Positions 10,972-50,850 of a DNA stretch of 64,000 nt are shown here, piece by piece (the stretch's first letter is position 1; every line of letters starts with the position of its first letter). The stretch spans positions 37,324,001-37,388,000 of the forward strand of contig OX597833.1 in assembly GCA_951406725.2 (NCBI GenBank), in the 5' to 3' direction. The notes below the pieces were generated by a model that was not told the origin of the DNA, ran no database searches, and saw only the letters and a program-made list of their open reading frames with translations. The position numbers and the translations under genes were made by a program. Source of the DNA: Octopus vulgaris. Its lineage: Eukaryota.

Positions 10972-11977
10972 GATTTAGGTTTTGTCTTTTTATATATTGA
11001 TAAAACTTAACCATTTATGATTTTTATTCACTGAAATTATTTCAATGAGTTTTCATAATAACAATCTTGGTTTTCTTTAGATATGAGTAAAATAGTAAAG
11101 TAGTTATAAGTTACACTTGATTGGGTTATTCAATATTTCTGAAGAATTTGCACTGAATAACCGCTCTTCTCCTCCTAGCCTGTCCATTAGACTAATGTTT
11201 TATAAACTACTCCAATGATATCACTGTAGTAGGAGGAGTGGCTAGCTGAGAGCAGTTGACTTAAACACCAGTGGTCTTAACACACAAAGATCCTGAGTTT
11301 ATGTTTACATGTTCCTACACAAGCCACATCTTTCTTTTCATTTTTCATCTTATCCTTATCTTTTGTGTAATCAAAATTATTTTACTTGTACTTGTATTTT
11401 GACTCTTCTGAAACAGGACTATGACAAATCTATTTTATTTGCATGATATTGGTTTAAAAAATAAAATCAGGTTAATGTGAAATGTGTGTGTATAACTAAG
11501 TAATATTGAATTGAAGTAGGATATGAGGGTGTTGTATGTTGTGCTTTATTTGTCAATGGCTTTATTTTTCATATCTAACAATTTTTTCTGTATCAACAAC
11601 TGTACATTTACTTAATCATAAGGATCTGTGCTTTGCTGATGAGGCCATAATATAACAGAAATGTGGTCCAACTTGCCAAAATTATTAAAATATTATTAGT
11701 CAACGTCTAATATTATCTTTTTTCTTCACCACATAATTACAGTTAATTTTTTTTACTGTTCTCTATATGAATTAAGTTAAGAGCAACTAAATTTATTTAT
11801 CATACCGTTGTCTTGTCACTGACTATGGACTATAATTATTTGACCAATTCATTGTTGGCATTTTACTTTGGACATCTAGCTAACCAGCTACAGCATCAGC
11901 TCCATTATTTTTAGTCGTTTTTTTAATGTATCGTGTCATTGAATTTTGTAACTACTACACAACTACCAACCCTTAAT

Positions 11978-12060
11978 GGCGCCCCCCCTTACCCTGAGAC
12001 CGTTTAACTTGTACACAGATTAAAGACAGGTTACGGTCTTAGGCACAGGATGGGTTTGCC
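11978..12060 (+). ncRNA. mir-125-like: pre-miRNA hairpin, miR-125/lin-4-like (MIR-10 family); predicted 5p ACCCUGAGACCGUUUAACUUGU (11991-12012)
   Basis: 5p arm has the miR-125 seed CCCUGAG and resembles UCCCUGAGACCCUAACUUGUGA. 3p arm ACAGGUUACGGUCUUAGG (12026-12043) pairs over 18 bp with two G-U and a UU bulge; 13-nt loop; lower stem CCU/AGG, GCCC/GGGU, GGC/GCC; basal UG at -14 (11977-11978) and apical UGU. Confidence 0.85.
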
Positions 12061-12493
12061 ACAATCAACTGTACTTAGCTGGTTGTTTTGTTTTGTATTA
12101 AATTGAAAAGAGCTCAGTTAGACTTCTACTGTGATTACATTAATGTGCTTCTCCACACTTGTCAAACTTCCACTCTTCCCTCCTCTTAAACAACCCACTC
12201 AGATTTGCATTTTTTAAGTGTTACCTCACCAGCATAATTAGTAGTTGATAGGAAAAAGTCGGTCAAAATCCTAGCTGAAGGAGTTCACAGTGACATTTTT
12301 TTAAATCAATTCATCCGATTGAGAAGTTGAGTTGATATTCAGTAGTCATAAGGGAAGCAGTAAAAATAACCGAAACATGTCTTGCTCAATTATATCCCTT
12401 TATAAATCTCTGTGTGTGTATGGGTGGGGGTGGGGGTGAGAGTGGGTGGGGTGGGTTACATTTGACATGTTGCATTTGTATTTTATATTGCAG

Positions 12494-12700
12494 ATACTGA
12501 AAAGAAGAATCTTTGTGAGAGGAGTTGGGCAGTTACAAGTATCACCACTACCACTGCTACAATCTTGACCACATGCTGAAATTTTAATAAATGGTTTTAT
12601 TATAATTAGATGTGTAGATATATTGTGAGTGTATGTATTTAAACCACAATTATTTTACACATACATTCACTTTGGGAATAAACATGTAAACCCAGACTGA
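12494..12700 (+). other. Probable terminal exon of the + strand host transcript
   Basis: Acceptor tattttatattgcag|; AATAAA at 12586-12591 and 12677-12682, followed by a GU/U-rich tract at 12701-12718. Confidence 0.45.
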
Positions 12701-13488
12701 CTTTTGTGTTTGTTTTTCAATTTGTAAATTAAAAATGATGGAGTAAAAAATGAGTTGTTGAATTATGTTATTTGTCAGCTAAGAAGATTTTCTTGTTGTT
12801 AAATTCTTACTGAATTCTGTTTGACTAGATATTAAAGATGGAAAGAAATGAACTGCTATAACTTTCCGTTATCTTTTCGACATTTTCATTTTGTACAGCT
12901 TTTCACATTTGCACAGTTTAGCTAGTAATTTACTTTATCTAAAGATTGCAATGAAAGAGGCATTCTACATATTAATTTAAAAGGCTGCTTTGCAACTATC
13001 CTGTCTTCACACATTCAGGCATGTCATCATTATCATCATCATCATTACCAGTCATTAGCAACAATAGCACTTTCTGCACAGGGCAAACAGTGAACAAAGT
13101 CAGAAACTACCATTCCAGAAGGGCTCTTTGTAAAATACCTACCAGTCTAAATGCATTGGAATCAGAGGATTCTATAAAAATTAAAAACATCAGATGATAA
13201 TAATAAAATGAAAACTGGCATTTAGGAATGGACCTAAATTTTGGGGTCATATATCTCACCAAAAAGTTCCTATTGTTTAGTTTCAAAGCAAAGCCACCTC
13301 CTGATGCTTCACAAAACATTGTCAGTCACATGACCTATTACAGGTGTCTAACACTTTTAAATATCTTTCACGGCCATTTTATTTTCTAATTATTTTAGAG
13401 TCACTAGGAGCAGTTGATTGTAAAAGTTGTTTGCATTAAACCAATAGATATTATGAAATAATTTTGTTGAGCCATATACAATTACATG

Positions 13489-20545: not shown

Positions 20546-21054
20546 AGAAGAGACTGAATGGAAGGGAGATAATAACAGTGACCCAGCTGAACAAATCTGC
20601 TCAAAAGCGCGTGTGTATGTGAGAATGATGTGTGTGTATATATGAATGGGGGTGAGTATTTGAATATGTATGTTTGATCTTCTGTGTGCAAGCGAGGCAC
20701 AAATTTTGTTGCAATTTTTTGCTCAAAATTTGCTGGCAAGTGCTCCAGGACTTGATGTATGAGGTATCTAAAGATTCAGTAATCTTTTGTCTACCAGAGA
20801 AAATATGTTTTTTGCACAACAAATCCTTTTTACTATAAAAATAACCTTGAAAACAGGGTTGCATCGCACAATTTTGAAGTCTTTAGCTAAGGGAGGCAAC
20901 TCTGCCAGACACAATACTTGATTTAACATCAAATGTAAACACACAAACACATATTAGGTGCAACTACATTGATACCCATTCAGTCCCTCTGCATGGTAAC
21001 CTGGGCGAGTGTTTTCTACTATAGACCTAGGCCAACCAGTGATTTGTGACCATT

Positions 21055-21302
21055 TGGGCTCTCCTACCAAAGGTTGTAGCATTCACATCTCTCACCACAC
21101 CATCCATATATAAATTAAACAGCCTTGGAGACATCGCACAACCGTGTCTTAAACCCACCTTCACATCAAACCACTCACTTACTTCACCACTCACCCTAAC
21201 GCATGCCCTACTTTCTCTATAAAAACTCTGTACAGCTCTCAACAATCCACCATCTACTCCATACAACTGCAACACCTGCCACATGGCATCCCTATCCACA
21301 CA
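21055..21302 (-). mobile_element. Isolated RTE reverse transcriptase fragment of a distinct lineage
   Basis: Uninterrupted VDRDAMWQVLQLYGVDGGLLRAVQSFYRESRACVRV...GLRHGCAMSPRLFNLYMD. Confidence 0.85.
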
Positions 21303-21894
21303 GACCTTCTCTTAAAATGGAGGGGCTGAAATTCTAACGGGGAAGGGGCATGGGCTAAGCATGTCATAGCTCTGCTGTGGCTATGTGCCTACCATACACA
21401 TATGCATACATACAATTCACCCTAAAAATACAAGCAATGCTGACCCAAGCAATTTTGGATGAATAATGGGTTTATTCTTTTAGTAGCTTGTGTCGCTAAA
21501 GTGTAGAAAGTATGTTTTTACTTTTTAAAGAGCATTTTTATGAAAATGTTTTTTTAATTTCAGGGAGACCACCATCATGGAATGTCATAGTATAGGATGT
21601 GACTTCCTTGAATGTGGGGCCCGATTCAGAGCAATTGGTCCAATTGGCTTAAGGCCAATATATAGATATATATTCAGTTGCAGGATTTGTAGAATCTAGG
21701 TATTTCAATGTGTAGGATGTCAGGAAAGACCAGGTACCAGTCTTGCAATATTCAGTGGTGTACTACAAGTCTGTACATCTACATCTGCATATCTATCCAT
21801 ATATAAGCACACATAGACAAATGTATACTTACATATATAAGTACCTGATTCATACAAACTGTAGAGCCAACCTAGGGGTGGTTCCAAGTGTAGC

Positions 21895-22160
21895 GTGTAT
21901 ATAAAAGAACACAAATATCTGTTTCAGCAGCATTTTATTGATGATCTCTTAGATAACATCATAACAAAAATCTGCCATTTTCAGAGGATTCTAAACAAAT
22001 AGAGTGGTAAAGTAGTGAAGTACCTTATCACTCTGTTTGTTTCTTTAAGATCACCTGAAGATGGCAGATTTTTGCTATGATGTAATCTAAGAATTCATAA
22101 ATAAAATGCTGCTGAAACAGCTGTTATAAATTTTAAACCCCATTTGTGTTATTTTATACA
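21895..22160. repeat. Fold-back element with hammerhead-like motif (Penelope-like terminal relic)
   Basis: Arms 21919-22010 and 22025-22120; CTGAAGAT-GGCAG...CTGCT-GAAACAGCTGTT at 22055-22125. Confidence 0.7.
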
Positions 22161-22168
22161 CACACACA

Positions 22169-23389
22169 CACGAGGTGAAATCAAAAATTGTCTGCACTTT
22201 TGCCATAACATATCTTTATTATTGTCACACTGCCTTCTGCACATGTGTGCTTATAGTTAGTACTATTGTGGTTACGTGATCAAAGTTTGAGACTGATCAT
22301 ACCACTTTTCTTTCTGGCTTTACAGTGTAATCATGGCCACTCCAATAGCAATGTGCACCAAAGAAGAACAAAGAGTAGTGATCCAATTTCTCTGGTCGGA
22401 AGGTGTTTCAGGTGCTGATATTCCTCGTAAGCACAATACAGGGACAGTGTACTGCTGCATAAAAGTGTGTATGAGTGGATCAAGAGGTTTAAAAATGGCC
22501 AATCAAGCATGACGCACAAAGAGGGAGCAAGACGTCCATCAAGCTCCACCACTGATGAGAAGATTCAGCAAGCTTGAGAGATGATAATGGTGAACCAGTG
22601 AGTTATCATCGATGAGGTAGCTTGTTCTCTGCAGATTAATTATGGTTCTGTCTATCAAATTATCCACAAAGTCTGTGCAAGATGGGTTCCAAGAGAGCCT
22701 ATGCAGAACACAAGCACAAACGTTTTGAAGGTAAAGAATTTTTGAGCAGAAGTCACAGGAAATGAAATGTGGGTCTACGTTATAAGGCAGAATCCAAAAG
22801 ACAGTGTATGGAGTGGAAACATCCTGGGTTGCCAGTGATGAAGAAATTCAAGACCCAGTCTTCCATGAGAAAGGTGATGCTAACCCGTTTTTGGGACTCA
22901 AAAGGGTCTAGACTAGAAGACTACCTGGAAAAGGTGTGTATGGTCTACAATGCTTTGCTGTCCAACAAACTGATGCCAGCAATTCACACCAAATGCCGAA
23001 GCCTATTATCGAAGAAAGTTTTGCTGTTGCATGACAACACACGGCTGCCCAGACCATTGAAATCATTAACCAATTCGGTTTTGGGTTGCTGGAACACCCT
23101 GCCTACAGCTCAGATCTTGCCCCTTCCAACTATCATATCTTTGGCCCACTCAAAGATGGTTTACAAGGTTGTTGATTTCCTATGGATAATGTGAAGGAAA
23201 CAGTACATAAATGGTTACATGATTAACTGGAAACCTTCTTCTTGGAAGGAATACACAAGCTTGTGGACCACTGGACAAAGTGCATTGAAAAGGAAGGAGA
23301 CTATATAGAAAAATGACATACTTGTTTATCCCCTGCTTTTGTGTAAATACATTGAAAAAACAAGAGCTTGTATAATTTTTGACTCTCTC

Positions 23390-47878: not shown

Positions 47879-48222
47879 CTGAAACAGCAAATAAGAAAAA
47901 AGAAAAGAAAAAGAAAATTTATATATTTTCCTCTGTCGAGAGTCAACCTCTAATTTCTGTTCTCTTTTCTTATCCTCCACCGACTGTCCAACCCTGGTAG
48001 CATTTGAGATCAGAACATAAAGAAAAATAACTGAATATGACAATGCATTAGAAGTCAAGCACATTTCAGACAGTACTGACCTGACAAACTAGAACAATGA
48101 CAACAACAACAACAACAGTCTTAATATATGAACAAGGTGTAAAATTTGGCAGAGGGGAACAGTCAATATATCAACCCAATACTTGACTAATACTGCAAAG
48201 AATGTAATACAATAACAAGTCT

Positions 48223-48682
48223 ACCAAACAAACCCTTGTCCTAATTGAGTTATAAGTGAACATTTCTCCTGGAAGTTTATTCAATAGCATCTTATTAATG
48301 CTATGTAGAGCAACATTTTTTTGGAACCAGGATAGCTCGCTCACAGATCCATTCTGTATTGTAATTATGAAGAAGATTAAGAAATATTTCAGCCACCAAA
48401 TCATCGATGGAATCAGTTGAATTACATATTGGATTGAGCGTTCTTCATCAATTGGAACTCTCCCTTCACTGAGTTTCAGAAGCTGCTCTGTAAAGAGTTC
48501 AATTGACTGATCTCTTGAAAGCCTCAATCTCATATTTGTCAAAAGTTGAAGTGCTTTCATATGATGCCATAATATAGAAGATTTTATTGAAGCACAATTA
48601 GTATTGCTGCCCTTGAACCATTTAGTTTCGTTTTATGGGACAAACACACAAACGGACAGAATCTCTCTTTTAGATACATAGA
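48223..48682 (-). mobile_element. Deleted Helitron with PIF1 helicase remnant (another 5' end at about 61329-61480, + strand)
   Basis: LTNMRL...LLKLSEG...KNV...IN.MLL.KLPG...Y.S; 5' end tctat...aaaag..attctgtc.gtttgt is shared with the 61329 copy. Confidence 0.7.
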
Positions 48683-48949: not shown

Positions 48950-50850
48950 TAATAATAATCCTTACTACTATAGGCACAAGGCCTAAAATTTGTGTGAAGC
49001 AGGTAAGCCGATTACATCGACTCCAGTGCGTAACTGGTACTCAATTTATTGACCCTCAAAGGGATGAAAGGCAAAGTCGACCTCAGCAGAATTTGAACTC
49101 AGAATGTAAAGATGGACTAACTGCTGCTAAGCATTTTCCCCAGTGTGCTAACAATTCTGCCAGCTTGCTGCCTTGATGATAATAATAATCCTGTAGTGAC
49201 GTCATTTTCCAGTGTGCGCACACGCAACGTCATTCTTCAGTGTGCGTGTGCGGAACGTCATTCTTCAGTGTGCGTGTGCGGAACGTCATTCTTCAGTGTG
49301 CGTGTGCGGAATGTCATTCTTCAGTGTGCGTGTGCGGGGCTGGAACCTTCTAGAAAGGCCTTAGGAAGTTCCCTCATGCACATGCGCAAGAGACTGGGGA
49401 AGAAAATTCTATCGCGTTCCTTGTTAGCGTCGTTGACTTGAGACACGGCTATTGAAGAGAAAGGACATGTTGTGTTAAACGTGTGATCAGCCTATTCTCC
49501 TGTCCCAGACGCTTAAGATTTGACCTGCTCTGTTGTTGCTGAATTTGTTGTAAGAATCTTACAAATGTTAAAGTTCAGCCTTGCTATATCGAACCAAGTG
49601 GATACCAATATACCAACGTACTTCTTTTGTAAATAAGAAAATAAAGAGTTATATATATATTTATGGTTGCGTTCTTGTTCCTGACTGGTATTTTCTGGAA
49701 ATTAAAGAAAGGAAATTGGTTGCACCCAAACAGTGTAAAGAATTAACCAGTTCCATTACAAATCCTTTCTACTATAGGCACAAGGTCTGAAATTTGTGTG
49801 GAGTGGGTAAGTTGATTACATCAATCCCAGTGCGTAACTAGCACTTAATTTATTGACCCCAAAAGGATGAAAGGCAAAGTTGAACTTGGTGGAATTTGAA
49901 CTCTAAATGTAGCAACAGATGTAATGCTACTAAATAGTTTGCCTGGCATGCTAATGATTCAGCCAGCTTACTGCCTTAATAATAATTCTTTCTGCTATAG
50001 GCACAAGCCTTGGAATTTGTGGGGAGGGTGATAGTTGATTACACCGACCTCAGTACTTGACTGGTACTTAATTTATCAACCTTGAAAAGATGAAAGGCAA
50101 AGGCTGACCTCGGCAGAAACTACAATAATAATAATAATGATACACTATTTTGTCTTGGTATAAAAGATGGGCTACAACAAATATTCTGCTCAATACCACA
50201 GATTTGCTTGTCAGTTGTTTGACCGTAACCAGTTGAGCATGTCCCTTAGTGGCTGACGATATGTGCATCTCTAACCACAAGCAGAAGTAGTTGGGGAGCA
50301 TCAGAGCTGTGTGTTGAAAGGATTTTCTTGGAGGTTTGAATAATTCAACTTTGGATACACGAGTGGTTTGTTCAACATCCTTAAACAATCTTTACTCAGG
50401 GACCTTTTGAGCGGGGTGGGCTACTCGACCAGAAAAAAATTCTAACTGGGCCCCACCTGCAAGGTCATGTGCTGTTTATCTTGATATGAGATCACCATGT
50501 CACACACATTTGGTTGTGATGCATGTGCCTGGTGTACCCTTATCAGACGGGTAGTCATGATGGGTATACTGGGCTTCGTATATTTTACCCAAGTGTCACA
50601 TTGATGGCATGCACTGCTCTCTCACTCAATAATAATAATATTAATGCTTCTAATTTATGCACACTCATCTACAGTTGGAAGAGAGAGGTTAGTTGATCAA
50701 ATCAACCTCAGTACTCAGCTGGTACTTTATTGACCCTAGAAGGATGAAAGGCAAATACAATGTTGGTGGGATTTGAAATCAGAGTGTAAAGGGTTATATA
50801 ACTGCAAAACAGACATTTTTTCTAATACTCCAGCCACTCCACCAACCTGC
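48950..50850 (-). mobile_element. Family B SINE array hosting a solo LTR and a repeat E copy (further B copies at 53560-53830)
   Basis: B units at about 48950-49172, 49761-49976, 49980-50120 and 50640-50850. Confidence 0.8.
49192..49760. mobile_element. Solo LTR (569 bp) with five 28-bp tandem repeats
   Basis: Ends TGTAGTG...CATTACA, perfect 5-bp TSD aatcc (49187-49191, 49761-49765), AATAAA near 49640, CpG-rich. Confidence 0.85.

Follow-up and report, generated by a model that had tools for sequence, protein, structure and literature searches.

miR-100 belongs with let-7 and miR-125, in this order, to an ancestral microRNA cluster of bilaterians. Protostome clusters are mostly tight, a matter of a few hundred nucleotides in arthropods; let-7 and miR-125 are 46 and 50 kb apart in two human clusters, where they lie within non-coding host genes; and miR-125 is listed as missing in Lottia (for all of these, the available text of PMC3384580). 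MirGeneDB files miR-100 and miR-125 under MIR-10 (PMC11701709), and the seed ACCCGUA belongs to MIR-10-P2, miR-99/100 (PMC9820140). The small-RNA table of the snail Helix lucorum contains 19 entries with the miR-125 (MIR-10-P3) seed. The first letter is U in 12 of them, A in 6 and G in 1, and all are unshifted (PMC9820140, supplement S1); they come from reads and are not backed by a genome (PMC9820140). In vertebrates, miR-125a is distinguished from miR-125b by a 2-nt insertion (PMC5204344).

Four cephalopods are covered by MirGeneDB (PMC8728216), and 164 microRNA genes have been annotated in Octopus vulgaris using covariance models, small-RNA reads and synteny (PMC9699675). The supplements of the latter paper name Ovu-Mir-10-P2 once, in the tables, and Mir-10-P6 once, in the PDF; Mir-10-P3 is named neither in the tables nor in the supplementary PDF that were searched, and it is not among the four loci which the available text lists as being without reads. 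Three entry names searched for in the available part of the MirGeneDB 3.0 supplement gave zero occurrences. Searches for the letters of the 5p arm and for cephalopod entry names returned no relevant paper among the searchable full texts, a scope that excludes MirGeneDB, subscription journals and bioRxiv supplements. The locus is probably already catalogued in MirGeneDB, as an earlier note on this DNA had thought possible.

The hairpin reported here lies in a 64-kb stretch of Octopus vulgaris DNA (64,000 nucleotides, called the window below). This hairpin is very likely the genome's single miR-125 gene (Mir-10-P3 in MirGeneDB) and the third member of the miR-100/let-7/miR-125 cluster, standing 119 kb downstream of let-7.

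The hairpin, its homologues and its putative transcript

The stem at 11977-12061 on the + strand folds with -38.6 kcal/mol in the window sequence. When the segment 11976-12062 was compared to its shuffles the z-score was -5.74 and none of 200 shuffles folded equally well, and a wider segment (11960-12080) gave a z-score of -3.99. Sequence search found one copy of the hairpin in the 2.80-Gb genome, at about C20:37335977(+), C20 being the contig that holds the window. Canonical microRNAs have arms joined by 16 or more pairs and a loop no shorter than 8 nt; the octopus hairpin has 18 pairs in its upper stem, interrupted by a two-base bulge (12004-12005), and its loop measures 13 nt. At the predicted Drosha site, bases 11990-11992 and 12044-12046 face each other in a 3x3 internal loop, and another 2-nt bulge is located at 12056-12057 on the 3' side of the lower stem. 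The processing motifs of canonical microRNAs (basal UG, apical UGU and CNNC) were all found, the CNNC one base outside the cited range for a cut at 11991, and the base after the apical UGU is A in the hairpin compared to G in the homologues. The extended hairpin, the basal UG at -14 and the apical UGU, all of which the earlier note had read from the sequence, were borne out, the UG for start 11991 alone.

In fold stability the hairpin ranks third of 2371 single-hairpin 91-nt tiles across the window. Its stability is not unique there; its identity rests on its sequence likeness to miR-125 precursors. The most stable tile belongs to an extended hairpin at 50496-50606 (-42 kcal/mol) that has no Rfam match at the gathering score.

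To collect homologues, a pattern with gaps was built from letters of the hairpin; it returned 14 metagenome stretches representing 10 distinct miR-125-type precursors. Five of these stretches are identical, and four of the five have let-7 about 817 nt upstream. When the hairpin was aligned with the 10 homologues, 24 of 100 columns were invariant and these were spread over both arms. A covariance model built from the 10 other precursors with the octopus hairpin excluded (R1) scored 37.2 bits at the hairpin (E 3.3e-9, a rough value), a score that is somewhat favoured because the homologues had been selected using letters of the hairpin itself. R1 had two further matches in 278,414 bases, one on the antisense strand of the hairpin itself, with 23.3 bits, and one chance match of 14 bits. 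By four measures out of five, covariation in the 11-sequence alignment was above that of all 500 shuffles, and it is given little weight because the structure was derived from the same alignment. By these comparisons the hairpin is homologous to miR-125 (Mir-10-P3) precursors in sequence and in structure over both arms, and its earlier description as a MIR-10-family pre-microRNA with a miR-125/lin-4 seed and a divergent arm was right. One DNA run of a related organism had 0 changes in the hairpin, a comparison that is uninformative because no more than 6 changes were present over the whole 1,451 nt.

Rfam gave zero matches in the 64-kb window at the gathering score, and at E 10 it reported no microRNA family around the hairpin, mir-10 and lin-4 included. 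This silence says little about the hairpin because 8 of the 10 distinct homologues are also unreported at E 0.01, the other two being reported under the cut-off. The E 10 matches near the hairpin, U6atac (18.4 bits, cut-off 33) and RAGATH-20, were taken as chance. The weak U6atac match (12105-12196, - strand, E 0.033) falls within the contig-covered stretch and is probably chance.

The antisense of the hairpin (window 11970-12062, - strand) also folds, with a z-score of -2.89, and an antisense miR-125 is listed for the lancelet in the available text of PMC3384580. An antisense microRNA at the octopus locus was set aside; the antisense fold beats the sense fold in 4 of 10 homologues.

Table 1. 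Predicted and observed features of the probable octopus miR-125 locus, in window coordinates.
Feature	Position	Strand	Basis
Stem-loop of pri-miR-125: lower and upper stem with 3x3 internal loop between them, 13-nt loop	11977..12061	+	Fold, pair probabilities 0.66-1.0
Basal UG, -14/-13 relative to 5p start 11991	11977..11978	+	Fold; register shared by 3 of 10 homologues
Predicted mature miR-125-5p, 22-24 nt	11991..12014	+	Alignment with 10 homologues; predicted ends
Seed CCCUGAG, the MIR-10-P3 (miR-125) seed	11992..11998	+	Sequence; seed table in available text of PMC9820140
Altered arm middle: G12002-C12034 pair where C-G is usual; bulged 2-nt UU insertion 12004-12005	12002..12005	+	Fold, model alignment
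Apical UGU, end of 5p arm	12010..12012	+	Sequence, fold
Predicted 3p (star) arm, 22 nt, 2-nt 3' overhang for cut at 11991	12026..12047	+	Fold, alignment; predicted ends
CNNC motif (CAAC)	12066..12069	+	19 nt past predicted 3' cut; 18 nt for cut at 11990
Stretch covered by contigs of putative RNA runs, probably 3' part of host transcript	11706..12700	.	Contigs
AATAAA and GU-rich stretch, candidate polyadenylation signal	12677..12682	+	Sequence; contig ends a weak hint

Twelve runs guessed to be RNA contain this stretch, and 6 of them, from 4 studies, were examined as contigs, from which strand, level and true ends cannot be read. The hairpin is covered by contigs in all 6 examined runs, although these runs were chosen because they contain the stretch and their RNA label is a guess; the contigs start between 10996 and 11782. 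Downstream, contigs from three studies end at 12693, 12696 and 12700, which is 11-18 nt after the AATAAA. Among the remaining contigs one ends at 12734 and one extends past 13300, and for one run nothing is listed beyond 12454. The contig ends hint weakly at a polyadenylated + strand transcript that has the hairpin close to its 3' end. Among the contigs listed for the examined runs, none joins the hairpin stretch to an upstream exon.

The let-7 cluster and the search for other loci

A genome search with the let-7 Rfam model gave one match, at C20:37216941-37217019(+), with 61 bits and over the cut-off. The mir-10 model also gave one match among the 60 of 317,589 candidates that were scored, at C20:37215556-37215626(+); its 43.7 bits are just under the cut-off of 47.5, and its arm carries the seed ACCCGUA. 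This miR-100-like hairpin has a 5p arm that is divergent mid-way and a weak fold (z-score -1.62), and the neighbouring let-7 is canonical. The miR-100-like hairpin, let-7 and the miR-125 hairpin follow each other in this order on the same contig and the same strand, with the miR-125 hairpin downstream of the other two. The distance between starts is 1,384 nt from the miR-100-like hairpin to let-7 and 119,044 nt from let-7 to the 5p start at 11991. The earlier note had seen no let-7 or miR-100 in the window and had proposed that upstream sequence be scanned for them. The former observation holds, with zero Rfam matches at the gathering score, and the scan located both about 107-108 kb before the first base of the window.

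The region examined in detail comprised 254 kb free of N (190 kb upstream plus the window). It contained 35 matches to the seed motif, the two best folds among them being the window hairpin and the miR-100-like hairpin, and no further sequence within 6 mismatches of the 5p arm. From 255 open frames of at least 90 codons, 57 low-complexity ones were removed and 198 were scanned with Pfam, a procedure that short exons would escape. Between let-7 and the hairpin there were 112 scanned frames, and 6 were over the Pfam cut-off: GIY-YIG, reverse transcriptase, RNase H, mariner HTH, DDE and a zinc finger, the last of which stands in frame behind a reverse-transcriptase fragment. Among frames of at least 90 codons, transposon-type fragments alone were found in this gap, and at least 31% of it is tandem or locally repeated sequence. 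Within the window, a long near-perfect inverted repeat (21966-22076, -55.3 kcal/mol) lies between fragments of a reverse transcriptase (21030-21311) and a mariner-type transposase (22766-23191), and at 48174-48632 (- strand) part of a PIF1-like helicase, perhaps from a Helitron, scores above the Pfam cut-off.

Three genome-wide patterns were used in the search for further miR-125 loci. The first matched the window hairpin and nothing else. The second had 9 matches compared to 8 for its control, and a microRNA-like fold was found solely at the window hairpin (-38.6 kcal/mol vs -7.6 to -21.8 kcal/mol for the rest). The third had 2 matches compared to 2 for its control, neither of which was a hairpin or scored more than 5 bits. 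The lin-4 Rfam model gave zero matches among the 66 of 29,972 candidates scored across the genome. The uniqueness of the hairpin rests on these three patterns, which are not exhaustive, and similar patterns missed miR-10 proper: a first genome-wide pattern for it had zero matches, and further patterns had 6 compared to 3 for the control, with a best fold z-score of -0.48 and no mir-10 Rfam match.

The hairpin differs from miR-10 proper (Mir-10-P1), which sits among Hox genes, in seed and in position. Its seed is CCCUGAG, or ACCCUGA for the other cut, instead of ACCCUGU. No homeodomain match at E 1e-12 was found within 3 Mb of it, and among the 38 homeodomain matches listed the nearest is 3.8 Mb away and a dense run is on another contig. 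At C17:70.0-78.5 Mb there are eight matches to the homeodomain, of which seven are on the + strand; this is perhaps a Hox or related cluster and a candidate location of miR-10 proper. A search for lin-28 as a target was also made. Cold-shock domains across the genome led to four domains of one other locus, and a search for the lin-28 knuckle domain gave one sub-threshold match. The four cold-shock domains stand in a row at C4:72.65-72.68 Mb (- strand), an arrangement like that of CSDE1/UNR.

The predicted mature arm and its processing

The 5p arm at 11991-12012 reads ACCCUGAGACCGUUUAACUUGU, and for the predicted start at 11991 the miR-125 (Mir-10-P3) seed CCCUGAG occupies positions 2-8. In all 10 homologues the letter opposite A11991 in the alignment is the first U of the mature arm, and 5 of the 10 also have the U that precedes it. 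Because of this alignment, the letters UACCCUG are read as a flanking U followed by one U-to-A substitution and not as a piece of miR-10; the reading of the earlier note, a miR-125 body with a start like that of miR-10, thus comes down to a single change behind a common flanking U. The substitution is outside the seed, at position 1, and therefore would not retarget the microRNA. In the middle of the arm, the covariance-model alignment shows a C-G to G-C swap at mature position 12 that is compensated on the 3p arm, and the UU insertion turns mature positions 13-16 from UAAC into UUUA. The insertion could change 3'-supplementary pairing.

In the proposed pathway, polymerase II would make a host transcript that contains the hairpin and ends near 12700, the Microprocessor would cut the hairpin at 11991, 13-14 nt above the basal junction, and Dicer would free a 5p guide of 22-24 nt. 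The predicted guide would reach about 24 nt if Dicer follows the homologous register, in which the UU insertion lengthens the arm. Guided by the unchanged seed CCCUGAG, Argonaute would then repress mRNAs whose 3' UTRs contain matching sites, which is how miR-125/lin-4 acts elsewhere.

The cut at 11991, which keeps this seed, is favoured in the predicted structure by the register, the basal junction and the UG. The basal junction is 13-14 nt from 11991, and the human Microprocessor cuts about 13 nt above it (PMC7174388); the rules applied here derive from human enzymes. The UG at 11977-11978 stands at -14/-13 solely for start 11991, and at -13/-12 for start 11990. However, a cut at 11991 puts the CNNC at +19 and one at 11990 puts it at +18, compared to a cited range of 16-18 (PMC7174388). 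This spacing speaks for the shifted cut as long as the 2-nt bulge at 12056-12057 is counted; the bulge may account for the extra base. The 3x3 internal loop at the cut may blur Drosha cleavage.

One alternative, considered in the earlier note and in our view improbable, is that in this same gene Drosha mainly cuts at 11990, so that a U-start guide with the seed ACCCUGA is made and the miR-125 locus is retargeted. A U is indeed present at 11990, the CNNC would then fall within the cited range, the cleavage point sits in the internal loop, and a one-base seed shift is documented in the family for Mir-10-P5 (PMC12257675). However, the UG, which the earlier note itself had placed at -14, would be one base out of register, the lower-stem mismatches suit 11991 better as far as the predicted pairs can be read, the U at -1 occurs in half of the ordinary homologues, and the snail has unshifted A-start miR-125-type reads (PMC9820140, supplement S1). 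The seed ACCCUGA has six letters in common with the miR-10 seed. It is equally improbable that, in this lineage, the U-to-A change at position 1 displaced the main Drosha cut by one base upstream; the deeply conserved seed would then be replaced by ACCCUGA, and a let-7-cluster microRNA would gain miR-10-like targets, perhaps from a transcript no longer coupled to let-7 across the 119-kb gap. As read here the locus matters little, since the microRNA is universally studied and both it and its cluster are what one would expect. A proven seed shift alone would surprise, because few animal seeds are as conserved as that of miR-125/lin-4.

The earlier note had proposed a separate MIR-10-family paralogue, in which case the true miR-125 would be elsewhere or lost. 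A divergent mature arm, the 119-kb gap to let-7 and the failure of Rfam to report the hairpin would all suit that proposal, pattern searches can overlook diverged copies, and molluscs may bear many miR-125-type sequences, going by the 19 read-derived, genome-less snail entries (PMC9820140, supplement S1). However, the hairpin fills the canonical third place of the cluster, behind a miR-100-like hairpin and let-7 in canonical order on the same strand, and no other candidate was found in 254 kb or by three genome-wide patterns. It is therefore not an orphan or a separate paralogue on our reading, and the proposal, which we hold to be even less probable than a shifted cut, fails. There is scarcely any chance that the hairpin is decayed or unprocessed and yields no microRNA any more. 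Its intact sequence does occur in long-RNA-type contigs, but the seed, both arms, the processing motifs and a compensated base pair have all been retained, and this retention points to selection.

Comparison with known systems

The octopus hairpin is like miR-125/lin-4 (Mir-10-P3) precursors in its seed CCCUGAG, the body of its 5p arm, its 3p arm, its shape, and its cluster order and strand. It differs from the usual miR-125 in the A at position 1, the compensated G at 12, the bulged UU and the A for G after UUGU. The A-start MIR-10-P3 entries of Helix lucorum (6 of 19) share the A and the unchanged seed with the octopus, whereas the 3' halves differ (PMC9820140). As in miR-10 proper (Mir-10-P1) and the seed-shifted Mir-10-P5, the first seven letters from 11990 are UACCCUG (PMC9820140, PMC12257675). 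Compared to miR-10 proper, however, the octopus seed continues with A and not U, the remainder of the arm is miR-125-like and the locus is linked to let-7.

The 119 kb between miR-125 and let-7 in the octopus contrasts with typical protostome clusters, which are tightly linked (PMC3384580). In the human miR-99a/let-7c/miR-125b-2 and miR-100/let-7a-2/miR-125b-1 clusters (hosts LINC00478 and MIR100HG), each with a host transcript shared by its members, miR-125 is also tens of kb downstream, at 50 and 46 kb (PMC3384580). The octopus spacing is parallel to this layout and more than twice the human figures, and the stretching of the cluster would have occurred independently of the human clusters. 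The spacing may also be a reason why homology searches and searches confined to a short stretch call mollusc miR-125 missing, as was the case for Lottia in PMC3384580.

The bulged 2-nt insertion that alters positions 13-16 resembles vertebrate miR-125a; this likeness and the long spacing are each of modest use. The insertion of vertebrate miR-125a sits at about the same place as the UU of the octopus arm. The octopus arm compares to the usual miR-125 as miR-125a does to miR-125b (PMC5204344), with the two insertions presumably being independent in origin.
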